In this document: positions 7,466 through 43,259 of the stretch, one piece after another
Layout of the letters: every line of letters begins with the position of its first letter
How positions within the stretch are numbered: the first letter of the stretch is position 1
Assembly (NCBI GenBank): GCA_045588775.1
Contig: JAZNEW010000061.1
Location: 31,884-95,883 of the forward strand
Source of the DNA: Candidatus Egerieisoma sp.
Lineage (GTDB): Bacteria; Bacteroidota; Bacteroidia; Bacteroidales; UBA932
DNA: 64,000 bases
Reading direction: 5' to 3'
Made by a program: the position numbers and the translations under genes
The notes under the pieces: generated by a model
What the model saw: only the letters and a program-made list of their open reading frames with translations
Databases searched by the model: none
Told to the model about the DNA's origin: nothing

Positions 7466-7494
7466 AATATTTCAGTAATAAATGTTCAGTGTAA

Positions 7495-8337
7495 CTACAG
7501 CAACCATTTCTCTTTGTGGGCAAGCGGTTTCTTGCTTATATTCAAAATCTGGGGTATCTGGTATAATTTTGAATATGAATGGCTGTGCAGTTCCATAATT
7601 TTTTCTACATCTTCCCGACAGTAGCCTTTGGCTAAAAGGTCCTCTTTGGAGCGGCCTCCCTCATTCAATTCAAAAATTATACGGTCCAGTATCGTGTAGT
7701 CGGGCAGAGTGTCGCTATCCTTCTGGTCTGTTTTAAGTTCGTCGGAGGGAGCCTTTATCATTGAAGATGCCGGAATGACCTCTTCATCGCGGTTGATGTA
7801 GCTTGCCAGTTCGTATATTTCGCTCTTATACAAATCTGCCAACACCATTACAGCACCGGCAAGATCTCCATAAAGGGTGCCATATCCCACATAGAGTTCG
7901 CTTTTGTTTGTAGTATTCAACAAAAGAGCATTGAATTTGTTGGCATAGGCCATGAGAATCGAACATCTGATTCTGGCCTGAAGATGTTCTTCTGCGACAT
8001 TCCATTTGTTGTGCGGCCCAAATATCGGCTGCAGCTCCTTCATGAATTTATTGTAGATTGTGCTGATAGGAATAATATTGTATTTGATGTCGAGATTGTC
8101 TGTGAGGTCTACGGCATCCTGTATTGAGTGAAGTGTGGAGAATTCACTCGGCATCAATATTCCATGCACATTGTTTTTGCCCAGTGCCTTTACTGCAAGG
8201 GCTGCCACTACGGCAGAATCCAGACCTCCGGAGAGTCCAATGACAGCCTGCGCGGCGCCCCTTGAACTGAAGAAATCCCTGATGCCGCAGACAAGGGCAT
8301 CATGAACAGCGTCTATCCGGAGATCACTAGATAACAT
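7495..8337 (-). CDS. nadE: Ammonia-dependent NAD+ synthetase
   Basis: PP-loop 'GLSGGLDSAVVAAL' in a 280 aa protein. Confidence 0.9.
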   Translation of the reverse strand: MLSSDLRIDAVHDALVCGIRDFFSSRGAAQAVIGLSGGLDSAVVAALAVKALGKNNVHGILMPSEFSTLHSIQDAVDLTDNLDIKYNIIPISTIYNKFMKELQPIFGPHNKWNVAEEHLQARIRCSILMAYANKFNALLLNTTNKSELYVGYGTLYGDLAGAVMVLADLYKSEIYELASYINRDEEVIPASSMIKAPSDELKTDQKDSDTLPDYTILDRIIFELNEGGRSKEDLLAKGYCREDVEKIMELHSHSYSKLYQIPQILNISKKPLAHKEKWLL

Positions 8338-8352
8338 GCCTTATATTAATTG

Positions 8353-9303
8353 TTAGAACACAAATGTTGGAGTGATTGATTTGTAGTTGTAAACTTTGTC
8401 AATTACATCACCAATGAGTTCTGCAATAGAGATAACCTTGATCTTTGATGTGTCTGCACCCTCTGCCGGACGCAATGGAATGGTATCGGTTACAATGAGT
8501 TCGGAAAGTTGCGAATTGGCGATATTCTCATAAGCTGCGCCTGAGAGAACTGCGTGGGTTGCAATGGCCCTTACGCTCAATGCGCCCTTCTCCATAAGCA
8601 TATTTGCAGCTTTGCAAAGAGTACCTGCAGTATCAACCATATCATCCACGATAACAACATTTCTGCCCTCAACATCACCAATGGCGGTCATTGAACCTAC
8701 CACATTGGCTCTCTCTCTCGATTTGTGGCATACAATAAGCGGACAGCTCAAAATGCGTGAGTAGGCATTTGCTCTCTTTGCGCCACCCATATCAGGAGCT
8801 GCAATTGAGAGATTCTCAATATTGAGGCTTCTCAAGTAAGGAAGGAAGATTGTGCTGGCATAGATGTGGTCTACAGGGAAATCAAAGAAACCTTGGATCT
8901 GGTCTGCATGGAGGTCTACAGTCATGACTCTGTCGCAACCTGCTGCACCCAACATATTGGCAACCATTTTGGCACCGATAGATACTCTTGGGCGGTCTTT
9001 TCTGTCTTGTCTTGCCCATCCGAAGTAAGGCATAACAGCGATAACTTTGTAAGCAGAAGCTCTTTTTGCAGCATCAATCATCAAAAGAAGCTCAAAAAGA
9101 TTTTCTACAGGCGGATAGGTAGACTGTACGATAAATACAGTTGCTCCTCTGACACTTTCATTGAATGCAGGCTGGAACTCTCCGTCGCTGAAAACAGTAA
9201 CTTCTGATTTTCCCAATTCCAGTTTCAAAGCTTGTGCAATTCTGTCGGCAATGTGTTTTGAGCCGCGGCACGAAAAAACTTTAATAGTATGAGTATGATC
9301 CAT
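8353..9303 (-). CDS. prs: Ribose-phosphate pyrophosphokinase
   Basis: 'MPYFGWARQDRK', 'VDLHADQIQGFF', 'VVIVDDMVDTAGT'. Confidence 0.95.
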   Translation of the reverse strand: MDHTHTIKVFSCRGSKHIADRIAQALKLELGKSEVTVFSDGEFQPAFNESVRGATVFIVQSTYPPVENLFELLLMIDAAKRASAYKVIAVMPYFGWARQDRKDRPRVSIGAKMVANMLGAAGCDRVMTVDLHADQIQGFFDFPVDHIYASTIFLPYLRSLNIENLSIAAPDMGGAKRANAYSRILSCPLIVCHKSRERANVVGSMTAIGDVEGRNVVIVDDMVDTAGTLCKAANMLMEKGALSVRAIATHAVLSGAAYENIANSQLSELIVTDTIPLRPAEGADTSKIKVISIAELIGDVIDKVYNYKSITPTFVF

Positions 9304-9325
9304 AGTGTGTTTGTGTTAAGTGTGT

Positions 9326-9949
9326 TTATTGAAATATATTCTTGTTATTCTCTTTAAGCATTTCCAGAACCGATTCGATATAATCCAGCACTTCGCTCTT
9401 GCCCATTCCGTTCTCCGAAGAGGTTATGAATATTGGTGGCAGCTCCTCCCAATATTCGAGCAGTGTCTTCTTGTTCTTTTCTATTTGGGATATCAGTGCA
9501 TTTTTGCCCAGTTTGTCACCTTTTGTGAAGATTATTGAGAAGGGAATCTGGGCTTCGCCCACAGCCATCAGGAATTCGAGATCGATTTTCTGGATGGGAA
9601 GTCTCGAATCGAGAAGTACAAACAATACCGCAAGCTCTTCTGATTTGCTCACATAGGTATTTATCATATTTGTAAGTCTCTCTCTTCCTGCCTGTGAAAT
9701 TTTGGCATATCCGTAACCCGGCAGATCTACAAGATACCAGTTGTCATTTATTTGGAAATGGTTTATGAGCAGGGTCTTACCCGGAGTGGCTGAAGTTTTG
9801 GCCAGTTTGTTGTTGTCGCACAACATATTTATGAGGGACGATTTGCCCACATTCGATCTTCCTATAAAGGCAAATTCAGGCAATTTGGCTTTTGGCCTAT
9901 CCTTCAATTGTTGGCTACTGCCGGCAAAAACAGCTTTTGTTATTCTCAT
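9326..9949 (-). CDS. yihA: Ribosome biogenesis GTP-binding protein YihA/YsxC (EngB)
   Basis: 'GRSNVGKSSLINML', 'DLPGYGYA', 'TKGDK'. Confidence 0.9.
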   Translation of the reverse strand: MRITKAVFAGSSQQLKDRPKAKLPEFAFIGRSNVGKSSLINMLCDNNKLAKTSATPGKTLLINHFQINDNWYLVDLPGYGYAKISQAGRERLTNMINTYVSKSEELAVLFVLLDSRLPIQKIDLEFLMAVGEAQIPFSIIFTKGDKLGKNALISQIEKNKKTLLEYWEELPPIFITSSENGMGKSEVLDYIESVLEMLKENNKNIFQ

Positions 9950-30888: not shown

Positions 30889-32055
30889 TTATTTGTTCTG
30901 TAAAGTATCTGACTCAGGAACAAGAATACCCATCGACCAGACGGCGCGGACATTCAAATTATTGTCCAGAATTACGATATCTGCATCTTTGTCCTTTTCG
31001 AGGGAGCCTTTTTTGTCGTATATGCCCATGATTTTCGCAGGGGTTTCTGTTGCCATGCGGATAGCGTCTCCAAGAGGAATGCCCGCTTTTTGGTTCATGG
31101 TCCTGACAAGTACATCCATGGTTGCTATACTTCCTGCAAGTGATGAGTGGTCTGCATATTTGCAAACGCCATCTTCTATAATCACAGGTGAGCCCTCTTC
31201 TGGTTTTATATTGCTTCCTGCATACTTCAGTGCGTCGGTAACAAGACATGTGCGCTCTGCACCTTTGAGCTTGTATACCATTTTAAGTATGGTGTGAGGA
31301 AGGTGTCTTCCGTCGGCAATAACCTCCACAGTCATGTCGTCCATCAGGTAAACACTCTCAATGGTGCCTTCGTATTTGTACTCCTGACGTTTGTGGAAAC
31401 CTGGCATGGAGTTGTAGAAGTTTGCAGTGTGGGTAAATCCTGCCTCATACGCCGCCTTTATATCTTCAAATTCAGCCTCTGTATGTGTTATTGTAGCCAG
31501 AATGCCTTTTGAAACCAACATTTGTGCAAGTGCATGGGCTCCCGGTATCTCAGGACTGATATCCCATCTTTTTATGCAGTTTGTGCTGTTCAGTATGGCT
31601 GTATACTCCTCTTTGTCGGGATTTTTTACTTTATGCACAGGCCCCGACATTTTGGGATTGAGGTATGGTCCGGCAAGGTGCAGACCCATAACTTGCGAAT
31701 TCTCTTCGTTCATGAGTTTTTCGCAAATTTCTATGGCTTTGTGGATCGATTCTGTTGGAGATGTGCCAAGTGTGGGGAATATGCTTGTGGCTCCATATCT
31801 CAAATGTGTTGCAACAATTGTACGGAAGGCCTCTTCTGTGCAATCCCTGAAGTCAAAACCGCCTCCGCCGTATACATTCATGGCTATGAAACCGGGTACA
31901 ATGTTCATTCCCTTTGCATCAATGGTATCGGCACCTATAATGGCAAGCTCATTATCTGTAACCGCCAGGATTTTTCCATTGTTGATAAGGACAGATCCGC
32001 CTTTGATCCAGCCTTGTGGGGTAAGAATATTACCGTTTGTAATTTGTGTCAGCAT
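30889..32055 (-). CDS. NagA-like amidohydrolase paralog with degenerate metal site
   Basis: 388 aa, collinear with the neighbouring nagA. It has 'MNVYGGGG' (no HxH), 'HLAGPY' (Glu to Ala) and 'THTANFYNSM' (His to Asn), but keeps 'TDAL'. Confidence 0.8.
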   Translation of the reverse strand: MLTQITNGNILTPQGWIKGGSVLINNGKILAVTDNELAIIGADTIDAKGMNIVPGFIAMNVYGGGGFDFRDCTEEAFRTIVATHLRYGATSIFPTLGTSPTESIHKAIEICEKLMNEENSQVMGLHLAGPYLNPKMSGPVHKVKNPDKEEYTAILNSTNCIKRWDISPEIPGAHALAQMLVSKGILATITHTEAEFEDIKAAYEAGFTHTANFYNSMPGFHKRQEYKYEGTIESVYLMDDMTVEVIADGRHLPHTILKMVYKLKGAERTCLVTDALKYAGSNIKPEEGSPVIIEDGVCKYADHSSLAGSIATMDVLVRTMNQKAGIPLGDAIRMATETPAKIMGIYDKKGSLEKDKDADIVILDNNLNVRAVWSMGILVPESDTLQNK

Positions 32056-32068
32056 CGCACTACTGATA

Positions 32069-33235
32069 TTAGAATAATTTGTTGGTTCCCTCTACTAATT
32101 TACCCATCGCCCAAACGGCACGGATATCAAGATTCTTGTCCAGAACAAGGATATCGGCATCTTTGCCGCGTTGCAGAGATCCTTTGCGGTCGTATATACC
32201 CATGATTTTTGCAGGGGTCTCTGAGGCCATGCGTATGGTGTCTTCCAATGGAACTTCTGCCTTTTGTACCATGGTCTTGATGAGTCTGTCCATTGTGGCA
32301 ACACTGCCTGCAAGTGCAGAACGGTCTGCAAGTTTGCAGACGCCATCCTCAATTATGACTCTCGGGTCGAAGGCTGTCTGGCTGTCGCTGGCTGCGCACG
32401 CAAGGGCATCTGTAATCAGACATGTTCTCTCAACACCTTTTACTTTATATACAAGTCTGAGGATTGTAGGAGGAACATGGATACCGTCGGCAACAACTTC
32501 AACAGTCATGTCATCAATAAGGTAGATACTCTCAACTGTGCCTTCATATTTGTATTCGCGACGTTTGTGGAATCCTGGCATTGCATTGTAGAAGTGTGTG
32601 GCATGAGTGTAGCCTGCCTCGTATGCAGTCATGATATCTTCATATTCTGCCTGAGTGTGGCCTACAGATGCCAGAACGCCTTTTGAGGTGATGTATTTTC
32701 CAAACTGCATAGCTCCAGGCAATTCAGGAGCCGCATCCCATCTCTTTATGCAGTTTGTCTCTTCCAGTAGCGGAATATATTCGTTCGGGTCGGGATTTTT
32801 GATGTTTTCAGGAAGCTGGCCACCTGCCATCTTCATATTGAAATAGTGTCCTTCGAGGTGCAGACCCAATACAGGGCTGTCTTTCTCTGCCATAAGTTTT
32901 TCTGTTGTGGCGGCTGCCTCACGTATCATCGGTATGGTAGATGACGACAATGTTGGGAATATACTTGTTGTTCCATGTTGCATGTGGGCCTTTACAGCAG
33001 TTCTGAAGGCATCCTCTGTTCCCTCCATAAAATCTCTGCCACCGCCGCCGTGTGCATGTATCTCTATACCGCCAGGCACTATATACATGCCTTTGGCATC
33101 AATCAGGTTGGCGCCTACAACGGCCATATCGCAATTTGTTACCTCAAGGATTTTGTTGTCCCTCATTATTATGGAGCCATCTTTGAGCCATCCCTGAGGG
33201 GTAAGAATTTTTCCGTTTATAATCTGTGTTAGCAT
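32069..33235 (-). CDS. nagA: N-acetylglucosamine-6-phosphate deacetylase
   Basis: 'EIHAHGGGG', 'LHLEGHY', 'VGHTQA', 'THATHFYNAMPG', 'ITDAL'. The full ligand set is present. Confidence 0.9.
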   Translation of the reverse strand: MLTQIINGKILTPQGWLKDGSIIMRDNKILEVTNCDMAVVGANLIDAKGMYIVPGGIEIHAHGGGGRDFMEGTEDAFRTAVKAHMQHGTTSIFPTLSSSTIPMIREAAATTEKLMAEKDSPVLGLHLEGHYFNMKMAGGQLPENIKNPDPNEYIPLLEETNCIKRWDAAPELPGAMQFGKYITSKGVLASVGHTQAEYEDIMTAYEAGYTHATHFYNAMPGFHKRREYKYEGTVESIYLIDDMTVEVVADGIHVPPTILRLVYKVKGVERTCLITDALACAASDSQTAFDPRVIIEDGVCKLADRSALAGSVATMDRLIKTMVQKAEVPLEDTIRMASETPAKIMGIYDRKGSLQRGKDADILVLDKNLDIRAVWAMGKLVEGTNKLF

Positions 33236-38801: not shown

Positions 38802-38886
38802 GGAGAGGTGGCAGAGTGGTCGATTGCGGCGGTCTTGAAAACCGTTGAACTGAGAGGTTCCGGGGGTTCGAATCCCTCCCTCTCCG
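38802..38886 (+). tRNA. tRNA-Ser (anticodon UGA), class II with long variable arm
   Basis: Acceptor GGAGAGG/CCTCTCC, anticodon loop CTTGAAA, variable arm GAAC..GTTC, T-loop GTTCGAATC. No encoded CCA. Confidence 0.9.
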
Positions 38887-38896
38887 CAAAAAAAAA

Positions 38897-38925
38897 CCGG
38901 ATGACGAAAATCATCCGGTTTTTTT
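38897..38925 (+). terminator. Intrinsic terminator of tRNA-Ser
   Basis: CCGGATGA (38897-38904) / TCATCCGG (38911-38918), followed by TTTTTTT. Confidence 0.75.
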
Positions 38926-38976
38926 GTATCCTGAACTGTCCGAATGCTTGTATACAGGAGGCAAGGGCAGGATGCC

Positions 38977-39001
38977 AAAAAAGATGTGCTACAAGCACAT
39001 C
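38977..39001 (-). terminator. Intrinsic terminator of the TIR-WD40 gene
   Basis: On the minus strand, GATGTGCT-TGT-AGCACATC is followed by TTTTTT. A second CCCAC/GTGGG hairpin lies just upstream. Confidence 0.6.
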
Positions 39002-39075
39002 AGGTTTGCTTTTAAGCGCCCCCCTCCCACGGCGAGTGGGAAGGATTGGGCATGGTCTAACATTGCTCCAGAATC

Positions 39076-41673
39076 TTAGTCAAGGTAGAATCTTTTTTTT
39101 GTTTCTTCCGACAGTTCCCTGTTGTGAAAGCGGTGTCTTGTTTCATTGATGAGTTCCTGAAGAGGCTTGTATCTGTAAAGGTGTATCTTGCCGTCTGCAC
39201 AAGCACCTGCAAGCAGGCTTTTGTCGGGACTAAGGGTCAGGTATGCCATGGTGCCATATCTGGACGTGAATGCCCATATCTCTTCCCCGGTTTCAGAATC
39301 GATTACCTTTATGCTTCCATTCCATGCGGTGGAGAGAATCTGTTTGCCGTCATCGGTAAATCTCGCAAAGTGTATAGTTGTATTATCCTTGTCTATGTGC
39401 GCTTTGACAGTGGTTCCTCTCTCCATATCCCATATTGCAATGCTGCCGTCTCCGGTGCCGCTGCTGAGTATCATCGTACGGTTATGAAGGTGGAGGATAT
39501 ATGGACTACTTATGATGTCTGTGTTGATAGTGATTCTCTTCCTGATTGTGAACTCTTCTGCATCTATGATGATTGCCTGCTGGCTGGTTATGGCGATGAT
39601 CTCTTTATGTTTCGGATCATAAGTTACTTTATAAACAATATCAGATCCTCCTGATATGATTTTGACCACACTGGCTTCACTGATGCTCCATATTCTTGCC
39701 GAATGGTCCATGGATGCAGAGATCAGATATTTTCCATCAGGACTGAATTCTATGTGATGGACATAGTGACTATGACCTGTAAATGTCAATACTGCTTCAG
39801 AATTGTCGATATCCCAGAGCCTTATGGTGCCGTCCTCGGATGCAGATGCAAATTGCTTGCTGTCGGGGCTTACGGCTATGTGCCTTACTTTTCCAGTGTG
39901 TCCTGTAAAGCTTCGGAGTGTGGTGCGGCTTTCTATATCCCACAACTTTATGTTATTGCCACTTGATGCCAGAAGTTCTTTATTGCTGCAGAAGGCCAGA
40001 CATGTTATGGTTTTGAAGTCGTTTTCATCGTCCAAAATGAGCTCATCGATAATTGTCTTGTGATTCCATAATTTGATTTTATGGTCCCAGGAAGCAGATA
40101 TCATGAAACGTCCGTCATTGCTGAATTGTGCGGATGATACGGCAAGGGAATGTCCCATATATGTATGGATGAGATCACCGGTTGTGGCATCCCATATCTT
40201 AACGGTATTATCCCAGGATGATGAGATTATGAGTCTTCCATCGGGACTGTATTCTGCATGTGATACTACATTTTCATGGCCTGTGAGGTTATGCAATACT
40301 TTCCCGGTCTCAGTGTCCCATATCTTTATGGTTTTGTCGTCGCTGGCTGACAGGACTGTTTTTTCATCGTTGCTGAATTTTGCTGAATTGACTGGACCGG
40401 AATGGACATGGAATGTCTTGATGCATATTTCATCAACGATGTTCCAGAGCTTGACCGTACCGTCTTCGGATGCTGAAAGAATATGTTTTCCACACTTGCT
40501 GAATTCTACTGAACTTACCCATTTTTCATGACCGCTCAATTCTCTGTACAGATTGCCTGTTTCAACTTCCCAGATGCAGATAGGACCCTCTTCGGTGCCG
40601 GATGCAATGAAGTTGCCGCAAGGGGAGTAAACTGTGCTGGAGACTTCGCAGCAGTGTTCCATGGAGTGTATTATCTCGCCTGATTTTATGTCTGTTATCT
40701 TGGTTGTTCCATCTGATGATGCAGATAGTATGTGATAACCATCATGACTGAAGCATGCGGAGTATACCGGGCCTGAATGGATTGTTAAAGTCTTGAGCTT
40801 TACGCCACTGTCAAGGTCCCAAATGATGACAGTGCCGTCTTGCGATGCTGAAACCAGATGTTTCCCGTCGGGGCTTGATGAAATTGAGAAGACTTCTTTT
40901 GTATGGGCTTTCAGAATGGCGGTTCGGAAAGAGTGTGCTTTCCTCAGAATAGCTTCCGCTTCTGGAATATATGGGCGGTCTTCGGGATCGGAGATATCTG
41001 CCGGTAGTGCCCTCAATGCAAGTAAGCATGCTAAATATGAATCTCCCTTTTGTATAGCATCTTCTGCTTTCTCTGTAAGAAAACGGCTTTCCAGACGCTG
41101 GAGACGTCGTTTTTCGTTAATCAGACGCTCTCTTTCCTCCTGCTTTTCCCTTTCATATCGTTGCCATAACTCATCAAATGAGACTCCGAGCATATATGCT
41201 ATTAATTTGATTGATGCGATCTCCTGACCGTTCTGCATATTGATCCCGAGTTGTTCGTTATCTGTTTTGCGAAGATTTATAAGCGCTTGAGGAAAACATT
41301 CTCTGTCAGGGTCGTCGGAATAAGGGATTCCGTCGATGATAAGCGGAATGATGCTGTCTGCTCTGCCAGACTGGATAAATGTCATGACTTCCTTGTTCAC
41401 CCAAGGTGATTTTGCGGAATTCGGAGAACAAAGGACAATAAGGTATTTGGAGTCGCTCAATGCCTGACTGATAGCATCAGACAGATTGCCGCCGGAGAGT
41501 TCCGCCTCGTCAAGGAACAGCGGCCGCAGTTCCTTGGGCAGTTCCGGTCTGGTCTCGCATATGTTAACAGGAAGTCGATAGTGTTCCAATTGATGATGTA
41601 GCCATCCGGCAATCTTTTCATCCTTGCGCTGATAACTGATGAATGCAAAATATTTGTAAACCTTTGTCTCCAT
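39076..41673 (-). CDS. TIR domain - coiled coil - 14x WD40 repeat protein
   Basis: N-terminal '[12 protein letters not shown]...[20 protein letters not shown]' (TIR). Linker '[23 protein letters not shown]'. Then 14 units of the type 'GH...V....FS.DG..L.SAS.D.T.K.WD'. Confidence 0.9.
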
Positions 41674-41702
41674 AGTATTTGTGTCAAATAATGATAATTA
41701 TA

Positions 41703-41710
41703 CAAATTTA
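41703..41710 (-). promoter_or_regulatory. -7 promoter box TAAATTTG upstream of the TIR-WD40 gene
   Basis: Perfect TAnnTTTG on the minus strand, about 30 nt upstream of the ATG at 41673. Confidence 0.4.
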
Positions 41711-41833
41711 GTGAATTTGTCCTGAATATCTCAATTCACCAGGGTAATCTTGTGTTTTCTGAATTAAAGATGACAGTTACCTCCGGGTATGTAATTTTTA
41801 TTTTGAAAATAAATTATAATGCATAATATTTTT

Positions 41834-41861: not shown

Positions 41862-43259
41862 ATGCAGCAATCTAGTTATATCATTGAGGTTCAGAATGTT
41901 TCTAAGCATTTTGGAGACAAGACTGTTTTGGATAACATCAATTTGAATGTTAAGAAAGGAGAGTTTGTTACTATTCTTGGTCCTTCTGGGTGTGGCAAGA
42001 CAACGCTTTTGCGTTTGATTGCCGGTTTTCAGACAACTTCTGAGGGAGAGATACGTATTGCCGGTAATGAGATAACGAAAACTCCGCCCCATTTGCGTCC
42101 GGTTAATACTGTATTCCAGAAGTATGCCCTTTTCCCTCATCTTAATGTTTTCGACAATATTGCATTTGGACTCAAATTGAAGAAGATGTCGGCTCCTGTA
42201 ATAGAGAAAAAGGTTAAGGCCGCTTTGAAGATGGTTGGTATGACAGATTATGAGTATAGGGATGTGGACTCGCTTTCGGGAGGCCAGCAGCAGCGTGTGG
42301 CAATTGCAAGGGCTATTGTAGATGAGCCTGAAGTATTGCTGTTGGACGAGCCTCTGGCAGCATTGGACTTGAAGATGCGTAAGGATATGCAGATGGAGTT
42401 GAAGGAGATGCACCAGAAGTTGGGTATAACATTCATATATGTAACCCACGATCAGGAGGAGGCGCGTACCTTGAGCGATACCATTGTTGTTATGAGTGAG
42501 GGTAAGATACAGCAGATAGGAACTCCTATGGATATTTACAATGAACCTATCAATTCGTTTGTTGCTGATTTTATAGGGGAGAGCAATATCCTTAACGGCA
42601 CAATGATTAAGGATAAGGAGGTGAATTTTGCCGGATATAATTTTGAGTGTGTAGACAAAGGCTTTGGAGAGAATGTGGAGGTTGATGTGGTTGTCCGCCC
42701 CGAAGATGTATATATTTTTGATCCTTCTGATGCAGCCCAGTTATTGGGAACTGTTACAAGTTGTATATTCAAGGGTGTCCACTATGAAATAATTGTGCAG
42801 ACCAATCAGGGTTATGAGATTATGGTTCAGGATTACCATTGCTTTGAAGCGGGAAGAAATGTGGGTTTGCGTGTAAAACCTTTCGATATCCATGTAATGA
42901 AAAAGGAGCGTTTGTGCAACACATTTGAGGGTGAGGTGATTGATGAGAATCATGTTGAATTTTTGGAGTGCGAGTTCGAATGTGCAGCTGCAAAGGGTTT
43001 TGAAGAGGGTGATAAAGTTTTGGTAGAGGTCGATTTTAAAGATGTGGTTCTGCAGGACAATGAAGAGGATGGACAGTTGAGCGGAGATGTCAATTTTATA
43101 CTTTATAAGGGCGACCATTATCATCTTACAGTAACATCTGAGTATGGTGATGATATTTATGTAGATACAAATGATGTTTGGGATAATGGCGATTGTGTAG
43201 GTATTTCTATTGCTCCTGAGTGTATACGTTTAAAAAAATTGGTGGAAGATGCTCAATAA
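41862..43259 (+). CDS. potA: Spermidine/putrescine ABC transporter ATP-binding protein
   Basis: 'GPSGCGKTT', '[14 protein letters not shown]', 'LLLDEPL', plus an extended C-terminal regulatory domain. Confidence 0.9.

Follow-up and report, generated by a model that had tools for sequence, protein, structure and literature searches.

A TIR-WD40 protein without a STAND NTPase, a candidate single-protein defence sensor of gut Bacteroidales

Here we describe a TIR-WD40 gene located in a stretch of 64,000 nucleotides (nt) from Candidatus Egerieisoma sp. (assembly GCA_045588775.1, contig JAZNEW010000061.1, positions 31,884-95,883 of the forward strand). This whole stretch is called the window, and positions refer to it unless another locus is named. 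The gene encodes an 865-amino-acid (aa) protein that belongs to both the TIR and the WD40 superfamilies and consists of a TIR domain, a helical linker, two WD40 propellers and a conserved C-terminal tail. We favour, at slightly better than an even chance, the reading that it is a cytoplasmic, self-contained defence sensor and effector of the abortive-infection type, which would detect an invader and cleave NAD+ (NADase activity) within one protein and without a STAND module. This reading builds on the anatomy of the protein, the conservation of its catalytic-type motif, the accessory status of the gene, the defence genes that surround its homologs and the hypervariability of the WD40 region. 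A full-text literature search revealed no paper that describes an NTPase-free TIR-WD40 protein of bacteria and none that assigns this architecture a function, in agreement with the preliminary description of the sequence, which had called the architecture functionally unassigned. Those checks proposed in that description that lend themselves to computation all turned out in its favour.

Anatomy of the TIR-WD40 protein

The open reading frame (ORF) is intact, with an ATG start and 865 codons before the stop, and the three motif strings quoted in the preliminary description were located at residues 9-19, 77-96 and 173-195 of its product. When residues 1-257 were used as the query, Pfam at E <= 1 reported only TIR_2 (PF13676; residues 11-122, E 1.2e-17, 65 bits against a cut-off of 28), ThsB_TIR (E 8e-9, 36 bits against a cut-off of 21.2) and TIR (E 3e-7); DUF4062 (PF13271) was not reported. 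An AlphaFold2 model of the N-terminal part, with a predicted local distance difference test score (pLDDT) of 87.3, has the flavodoxin-like alternating beta/alpha fold of TIR domains. The domain placed by eye at residues 1-135 is therefore a TIR domain, with a fold that runs somewhat further in the model (Table 1). The best structural match in Foldseek was the TIR domain of SARM1 (TM-score 0.70-0.74, E 6e-6), and AbTir, C. elegans TIR-1 and SPARTA TIR-APAZ were matched as well. The solved folds nearest to the window TIR are thus those of active NADase TIR domains.

The domain carries a WxxxE motif, which is common to TIR domains making cyclic ADP-ribose (cADPR) isomers. When 5.8 billion proteins were searched for homologs, many full-length relatives turned up, ~860-890 aa long and 30-72% identical, and 59 of them were aligned. 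W91 is kept in all 59 and E95 is a Glu in 58/59; A10, F11, S13, Y14, D18, C82, S83, P84 and V92 are likewise invariant. In phmmer alignments the window's 'WVNKE' was paired with 'WVHKE' of SARM1 and 'WCLEE' of Roq1, whose Glu residues (E642 in SARM1) are the catalytic ones. Thus, the Glu noticed near residue 95 does stand at the putative catalytic position, and its conservation among the homologs means that an objection based on a non-conserved Glu fails.

Brucella BtpA and TcpB TIR domains were found among the weaker matches in PDB. BtpA/TcpB and the gut and rumen habitat of the family would suit a host-directed effector of the Tcp/Btp type, one that disturbs Toll-like receptor (TLR) signalling in the animal. 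We regard this as highly improbable, as the large 865-aa protein is of an intracellular type with no signal peptide or secretion motif, its context consists of defence genes and not of virulence loci, and hypervariable propellers (see below) are not called for in such an effector.

As a separate lead, the top sequence match of the family TIR profile to a solved structure was PDB 9m0n / 9umd, an 824-aa 'Tetratricopeptide repeat protein' (E 2.9e-5). The alignment covers residues 42-103 only; the entry may be a TIR-repeat protein built on a similar logic, and we treat it as a lead and not as a comparison. A literature search on 9m0n found nothing relevant.

The full-length AlphaFold2 model, built on the 59 homologs, has a mean pLDDT of 89.5 and a predicted TM-score (pTM) of 0.76. 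Between the TIR domain and the propellers it contains helices only (residues 166-247, ~85 helical residues). The first is a single long helix of 43 residues, 53% of them charged, in which the heptad pattern is only partial. Of the charged coiled-coil linker proposed earlier, the charge therefore stands, but instead of a coiled coil it could equally be a single stable helix. Two short helices follow at residues 212-222 and 237-247, forming a pre-propeller module with conserved positions. The same segment also precedes the WD40 repeats of two long WD40 proteins, P0043 and P0081, for which the precomputed Pfam lists give PF20703 (nSTAND1). In the TIR-WD40 protein itself, no NTPase family was found in Pfam, NCBIfam or PADLOC, nor any Walker A motif. 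As described by eye, there is thus no NACHT/NB-ARC switch.

The model places 56 beta strands in residues 252-834, corresponding to 14 four-stranded blades, and the sequence of this region divides into 14 units of 39-44 aa each. WD40 was matched in Pfam at E 7e-103, dozens of WD40/beta-propeller models match the region after the TIR domain, and Foldseek with the propeller region put tandem double propellers on top (2ymu, 1e-50; Apaf-1, 3sfz, 5e-39). The count of fourteen blades, enough for two seven-bladed propellers, was therefore correct. The coding DNA shows a 126-nt periodicity. Recent homogenisation of the repeats was considered and rejected: the units are 61-75% identical at the DNA level and Tandem Repeats Finder reported only a 20-nt repeat.

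The propellers are followed by a 29-aa tail with the pattern 'PLQELIxxTRxRFxNRxLTxEExKxYYLD', in which L838, Q839, L841, F849, L854 and Y863 are nearly invariant. Across the family the tail is conserved to a degree comparable to the TIR domain, and it could act as an autoinhibitory or closing element. Identity to distant homologs is 45-58% in the TIR domain, 30-39% in propeller 1, 17-28% in propeller 2 and mostly 45-62% in the tail. A transmembrane segment, a signal peptide and a hydrophobic segment were looked for in the window protein and none was found; it is of the soluble type.

Variable slot and homolog loci

In the window, the gene lies between tRNA-Ser and the potABCD operon, which are its neighbours, and there is no partner gene, all as first described. 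To place this arrangement among related genomes, we scanned one genome per species (GTDB) for PotA and retained the 80 best loci with 10 kb of flank. A TIR-WD40 relative was sought in these 80 loci and none was encoded. The frame ileS-dksA-lspA-sigma-tRNA-Ser ... potA was present only in L001, a Bacteroidales bin from deer gut, whose IleS, LspA, sigma factor and PotA are 93%, 94%, 94% and 90% identical to those of the window. In a blastn comparison with L001, homology ends at 38888 and returns at 41806. The 2.9-kb slot of the window holds the TIR-WD40 gene as its sole gene, and the L001 slot (7486-9945, 2.5 kb) holds three unrelated genes, encoding a DUF4359-like protein (138 aa), a T5orf172 protein (218 aa) and a 321-aa protein without a Pfam match. 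Thus, with homologous flanks and different genes between them, the slot is variable. The suspected variable occupancy of the lspA-sigma-tRNA-Ser/potA interval is therefore seen in one comparison genome, and in the lineage of the window the gene does not belong to a core in fixed synteny: it is accessory.

Along its entire length, the T5orf172 protein of L001 matches PDC-S57 (E 1.8e-68), a candidate defence family in PADLOC. The slot carries a defence-type gene in both the window and L001, and behaves as a small defence hotspot. An att-type island was rejected, as no direct repeats of the tRNA 3' end flank the slot. The G+C content of the gene (0.43-0.47) is near the window mean of 0.42 and gives no compositional sign of recent transfer. 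Among the other 51 proteins of the window, PADLOC produced generic domain matches only and listed no ThsA model; we read the one with a Thoeris label, a weak match of a single protein to ThsC 'HIT family' (E 4.3e-7), in the same way.

The homologs occur in similar company. For relatives at 60-72% identity, the five contexts that we looked up are five different loci. Their neighbours include an AbiJ_NTD3/AAA_21 protein matching PDC-M01A (3.7e-132), a Gp49/HTH pair, pP_pnuc nuclease genes, an nSTAND1-TIR-FGE-sulfatase gene together with SIR2-TIR, and two GmrSD_N genes. In qualitative terms, the homologs adjoin known or candidate defence genes, the Alistipes loci described below excepted. No conserved neighbour was found across the homolog contexts. 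Distant members, and members in 80 metagenome loci, often lie in one-strand arrays of TIR paralogs, accompanied by TIR-Sel1, TIR-FGE-sulfatase, TIR-only, DUF4062-TPR, TIR-NPHP3_N, TPR and nSTAND1 proteins. WD40, TPR and FGE-sulfatase are sensor classes of defence-associated STAND proteins (PMC13581612). The TIR paralogs fused to WD40, Sel1/TPR and FGE-sulfatase thus couple the same type of TIR domain to all three of these sensor classes, without an NTPase.

These arrays bear on the possibility that the protein generates a signal in the manner of Thoeris. Its propellers would sense the invader and its TIR domain would make a cADPR isomer or an ADP-ribose (ADPR) conjugate for an effector encoded elsewhere, leaving NAD+ undepleted. 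Shared downstream effectors are possible where homologs are arrayed, as they often are, with other TIR and SIR2-TIR proteins, and both the ThsB_TIR match, above its cut-off, and the WxxxE motif fit a signal generator. However, no ThsA-like, SLOG, Macro or SAVED partner lies beside the gene or is suggested among the other 51 window proteins, the homolog contexts share no neighbour, and the top fold matches include SARM1, which is mainly an NAD+ consumer. Consequently, we consider this alternative unlikely.

To estimate the size of the family, we scored the N-terminal 250 residues (TIR domain and linker) against 1.84 billion cluster representatives. At E <= 1e-30 this module matched 1,531 clusters, and with the limit relaxed to E <= 1e-10 the number rose to 9,529; of the best 150 matches, nearly every one has a length of 600-1,200 aa. 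The family thus comprises at least 1,531 clusters (50% identity), mostly from gut and rumen Bacteroidales. Few members are named, and these come from Cryptobacteroides, Alistipes, Prevotella, unclassified Bacteroidales and one bin of a Methanomethylophilaceae archaeon. The few metagenome contigs whose record name gives a source come from human gut, and the nearest genome bins from ruminant guts. No relatives were found in IMG/VR or in GenBank phage records. The plasmid collection contained no whole module; its matches were to the TIR domain only, at 32-40% identity, on records of 0.24-2.4 Mb. The sole name that public records give to these proteins is 'TIR domain-containing protein'.

Some individual members and arrays deserve mention. 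P0058 (938 aa) is the full-length homolog in the bin of the gut archaeon and could reflect transfer or binning contamination, and P0104 (1117 aa) has two tandem TIR modules ahead of its WD40 region. The array in L089 (1-14601) has the order DUF4062-TPR (1218 aa), TIR-WD40 (909 aa), TIR (282 aa), TIR-WD40 (866 aa), TIR-NPHP3_N-WHD (952 aa), RyR, an unknown 716-aa protein and TIR; further arrays of TIR paralogs occur in L083, L095, L122, L157 and L162. In both L172 (717-3548) and L089 (11563-14348), two genes stand beside TIR-WD40, the first for a RyR-domain protein of 96 aa and the next for a protein of ~680-716 aa that gives a weak RCK-like match. Found in two unrelated contexts, this pair could be a separate two-gene module.

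WD40 alleles and membrane-anchored members

In Alistipes, the gene order is comM/yifB-TIR-WD40-murG-murC-ftsQ-ftsA-ftsZ, on one strand and with gaps of 10-26 nt (for example L084:6433-11727 and L087:4435-9694), so co-transcription with the housekeeping genes is possible. ComM-TIR-WD40 fusion proteins also exist (P0055, 1333 aa; P0075, 1188 aa). The 90% cluster of P0025, recorded with '663 member sequences', consists largely of 511-512-aa ComM/YifB proteins; its size is not a measure of abundance, because ComM proteins were pulled in through such fusions.

In five Alistipes-type contigs, nucleotide identity of the comM, murG and murC genes is 98.6-99.9%, so that these contigs presumably represent one species. 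Within this species the TIR-linker module is 96-100% identical and the tail 87-100%, but the WD40 region only 45-60%. The alleles encode proteins of 738, 825, 828 and 870 aa, and one of them recurs in two independent assemblies at 99.96% identity.

The reverse pattern was observed between two Alistipes species. In L084 and L087 the WD40 part is 92% identical and the housekeeping neighbours are 64-89% identical. The WD40 part shows a synonymous divergence (dS) of 0.07-0.20 and the TIR part one of 0.69, the latter similar to the neighbours. A ratio of nonsynonymous to synonymous divergence (dN/dS) of 0.06 at this dS of 0.69 indicates strong purifying selection on the TIR part. A conserved core gene, which the 92% identity of the protein between the two species first suggested, was rejected, since dS by region shows that the unusual similarity is limited to the WD40 part. 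As the low dS is confined to that part, recent exchange fits better than constraint. Thus, in Alistipes the locus is fixed, but its WD40 part behaves like a hypervariable cassette that can be exchanged, framed by a strongly constrained TIR domain and a tail that both stay constant.

A non-immune role has to be weighed here, in which the protein is a housekeeping or regulatory scaffold, with the TIR domain as interaction module and the propellers as platform, for example in a link to the cell envelope or to division. The fixed position between comM/yifB and the murG-murC-ftsQ-ftsA-ftsZ genes with its short gaps, the ComM fusions and the purifying selection on the TIR part all point that way. 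A conserved cellular partner is nevertheless hard to square with WD40 regions that differ so much within one species. Moreover, the nearest relative found for the window organism (L001) lacks the gene, close homologs sit at unrelated loci, and the catalytic-type Glu is kept in nearly every aligned homolog. We therefore regard a scaffold as very unlikely.

Part of the family is predicted to be anchored in the membrane. A transmembrane helix in the linker was predicted in 18/59 aligned homologs and in 25/66 full-length members of the metagenome loci, as an inserted hydrophobic helix of 20-30 residues at the position of the linker helix. Such members have on average 6.7 Lys/Arg before this helix, on the TIR side, and 3.3 after it, on the WD40 side. 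By the positive-inside rule, this excess suggests that the TIR domain is cytoplasmic and the propellers are outside. Members of this type include P0011, P0015, P0028, P0034, P0047, P0050 and P0072 and those at L095:10597-13506 and L157:7986-10658.

A PrsW-family intramembrane metalloprotease of ~237 aa adjoins members of the family in six loci (L095:6121-6831, L096:10190-10906, L111, L114, L138 and L157). A link between this protease and the anchored type was rejected, as its neighbours are five soluble and two transmembrane members.

The alleles and the anchored members raise the possibility that the family serves self/non-self recognition or conflict between bacteria, as in allorecognition by fungal WD40 NLR proteins. 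The propellers would then recognise proteins of competitor Bacteroidales or of conjugative elements (delivered toxins, for example), with no phage involved, and anchored paralogs would sense periplasmic cues. Within-species WD40 allelism beside a constant TIR domain, an allele apparently shared across species (L084/L087) and the predicted extracytoplasmic propellers of the transmembrane homologs are all consistent with this, and phage records and viral contigs yielded no family member. The window protein, in contrast, is of the soluble type, the genes next to homologs belong to anti-phage types (GmrSD_N, PDC-M01A, PDC-S57), and type VI secretion system (T6SS) or conjugation genes were not seen beside any member examined. 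We judge a conflict receptor of this kind to be quite improbable.

For the family as a whole, we raise, tentatively and as a possibility that may well not hold, that it forms a class of its own of STAND-independent bacterial pattern-recognition receptors, in which a constant NADase TIR domain and a constant tail would frame an exchangeable hypervariable WD40 cassette, and in which the anchored members would have a topology like that of Toll receptors. In the sequences compared, strains of a single species differ by 40-55% in this cassette, which can apparently also be shared across species.

Proposed mechanism, related systems and further features

Our model for the preferred reading, a cytoplasmic sensor and effector in one protein, is as follows. 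The two WD40 propellers, and chiefly the more variable second one, would form the specificity module and bind a protein of the invader, most likely a structural or replication protein of a phage. The linker helices and the C-terminal tail may hold an autoinhibited state. Binding, probably to a multimeric target, would gather several copies of the protein or free it from that state, and the N-terminal TIR domains would then pair to form composite active sites. Using Glu95 of the WxxxE motif, these would cleave NAD+, and NAD+ depletion would stop the growth of the infected cell. There being no STAND nucleotide switch, we hypothesize that the target itself provides the oligomerisation that assembly driven by nucleoside triphosphates (NTPs) gives to NLR-like proteins.

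Several observations weigh against this model. About one third of the family has predicted extracytoplasmic propellers, which purely intracellular sensing leaves unexplained. In every Alistipes locus seen, the gene is fixed between comM/yifB and murG, which is atypical of mobile defence genes. The variable occupancy of the window locus rests on a single comparison genome (L001), and the Alistipes alleles come from metagenome contigs, for which chimeric assembly is not fully excludable. The loops on the top face of the propellers are more variable than those on the bottom face among the 59 homologs (p 7e-9), but not significantly so among the 10 closest (p 0.65), and such a difference is also a general property of WD40 proteins. 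Finally, PADLOC v2.0 gives the window protein no full-length model, only partial or weak matches (HEAT-ARM_XIII through the WD40 region; SAVED_TIR, 1e-6; PDC-S66, 7e-4).

The closest model for how the protein could work is DSR2, a SIR2 NADase with a solenoid sensor that is switched on by the tail tube protein of a phage (PMC11087589). In DSR2 (PMC11087589, PMC10981675), as in the window protein, an N-terminal domain, NAD+-consuming in DSR2, is fused straight to a large repeat sensor without an NTPase switch. In DSR2, direct binding of a phage structural protein leads to abortive infection by NAD+ depletion. However, its enzyme is SIR2, its sensor an alpha-solenoid and its assembly a constitutive tetramer, and it has no sequence or fold kinship with the window protein. 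Swarozyc and Evangelion (bioRxiv 10.64898/2026.05.01.722283, 10.64898/2026.06.25.731849) are single-gene defences with a TIR-type NADase that becomes active on assembling with a multimeric protein of the phage, which for Swarozyc is the portal (bioRxiv 10.64898/2026.05.01.722283). Like DSR2, Swarozyc is a working precedent that lacks an NTPase. DUF4062-TPR proteins share arrays with TIR-WD40 family members. The TIR-like domain of Swarozyc and Evangelion is, however, DUF4062, whereas that of the window protein is TIR_2/ThsB_TIR/TIR and its sensor a WD40 double propeller.

STAND proteins such as Avs, bNACHT and TIR-NLR (PMC13581612) likewise pair an effector with a repeat sensor and draw on the same WD40/TPR/FGE-sulfatase repertoire, but their central P-loop NTPase is absent here; lacking an NTPase, the window protein is not a STAND/NLR protein. 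ThsB of Thoeris is also a bacterial TIR protein that senses infection, and its Pfam family matches the window protein. In contrast to ThsB, the window gene has no ThsA partner or operon and carries a 600-residue propeller sensor fused to its TIR domain; without ThsA, it is not Thoeris. Neither is the window protein a DUF4062 protein or a member of any PADLOC v2.0 system. Among eukaryotic proteins, SARM1 provides the best structural match for the TIR domain and the same WxxxE Glu, but it uses SAM-domain oligomerisation and ARM-repeat regulation. Apaf-1 has one of the best-matching double propellers, but with an NB-ARC ATPase and a CARD effector. Among the best matches, none was a eukaryotic protein with a TIR domain joined directly to WD40 repeats.

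Few defence systems have been tested in gut Bacteroidales, though in the gut of humans and ruminants these bacteria, together with their phages, are dominant. With its at least 1,531 clusters, the family would represent a common single-gene immune receptor in this niche, provided that the proposed mechanism holds. It would offer a simple case of a repeat sensor that switches on a TIR NADase without the nucleotide-driven oligomerisation of NLR proteins. The within-species WD40 alleles provide a natural series for mapping ligand specificity, and the anchored paralogs raise the question of bacterial receptors with Toll-like topology. Family size, niche, sensor allelism and anchored paralogs thus make the family a good experimental target.

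The coordinates of the gene, its parts and its surroundings are listed in Table 1. The gene had been described as having its own promoter and its own terminator. Downstream, a terminator-like hairpin with a T run is indeed present. Upstream, the TAAATTTG box is found as described, but it is weak promoter evidence, because the motif TAnnTTTG occurs ~0.65 times per kb across the window.

Table 1 Features of the TIR-WD40 gene, its slot in the window and the Alistipes-type alleles
Feature	Position	Strand	Basis or remark
Complete coding sequence (TIR, helical linker, 14 WD40 blades, conserved tail)	39076..41673	-	ORF list, Pfam, AlphaFold2
TIR domain, residues ~8-162	41188..41652	-	Pfam TIR_2; N-terminal model compared with SARM1, AbTir, SPARTA TIR-APAZ
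W91-V-N-K-E95, WxxxE motif with putative catalytic Glu	41389..41403	-	Translation; E95 codon 41389-41391
Long charged helix, residues 166-208	41050..41178	-	DSSP on model; composition and heptad check
Pre-propeller helical module, residues 212-247	40933..41040	-	Conserved L223, P224, R233, P234, E240, R244 (alignment)
WD40 propeller 1, blades 1-7, residues 252-543	40045..40920	-	Strand count, repeat units
WD40 propeller 2, blades 8-14, residues 544-836	39166..40044	-	Strand count, repeat units; most divergent part of the family
Conserved C-terminal tail, residues 837-865, two predicted helices	39079..39165	-	Alignment, model
Match to Bacteroides-type -7 promoter box, TAAATTTG	41703..41710	-	29 nt from ATG
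Terminator-like hairpin (39001-38983), then T run	38973..39001	-	75 nt past stop codon
Variable slot, tRNA-Ser 3' end to potA upstream region	38889..41805	.	blastn against L001
tRNA-Ser(TGA), left edge of slot	38802..38887	+	ARAGORN; same tRNA in L001
potA	41862-43259	+	ORF list
Alistipes-type allele loci	L103:1503-3990; L105:1219-3840; L130:7992-10218; L163:7992-10488		

Elsewhere in the window, two adjacent genes for 388-aa paralogs (30889-32055 and 32069-33235, both on the minus strand) encode proteins that begin with MLTQI.NG.ILTPQGW and represent a tandem duplication. The self-similarity of this region (30889-33235) is also visible in the blastn comparison with L001.

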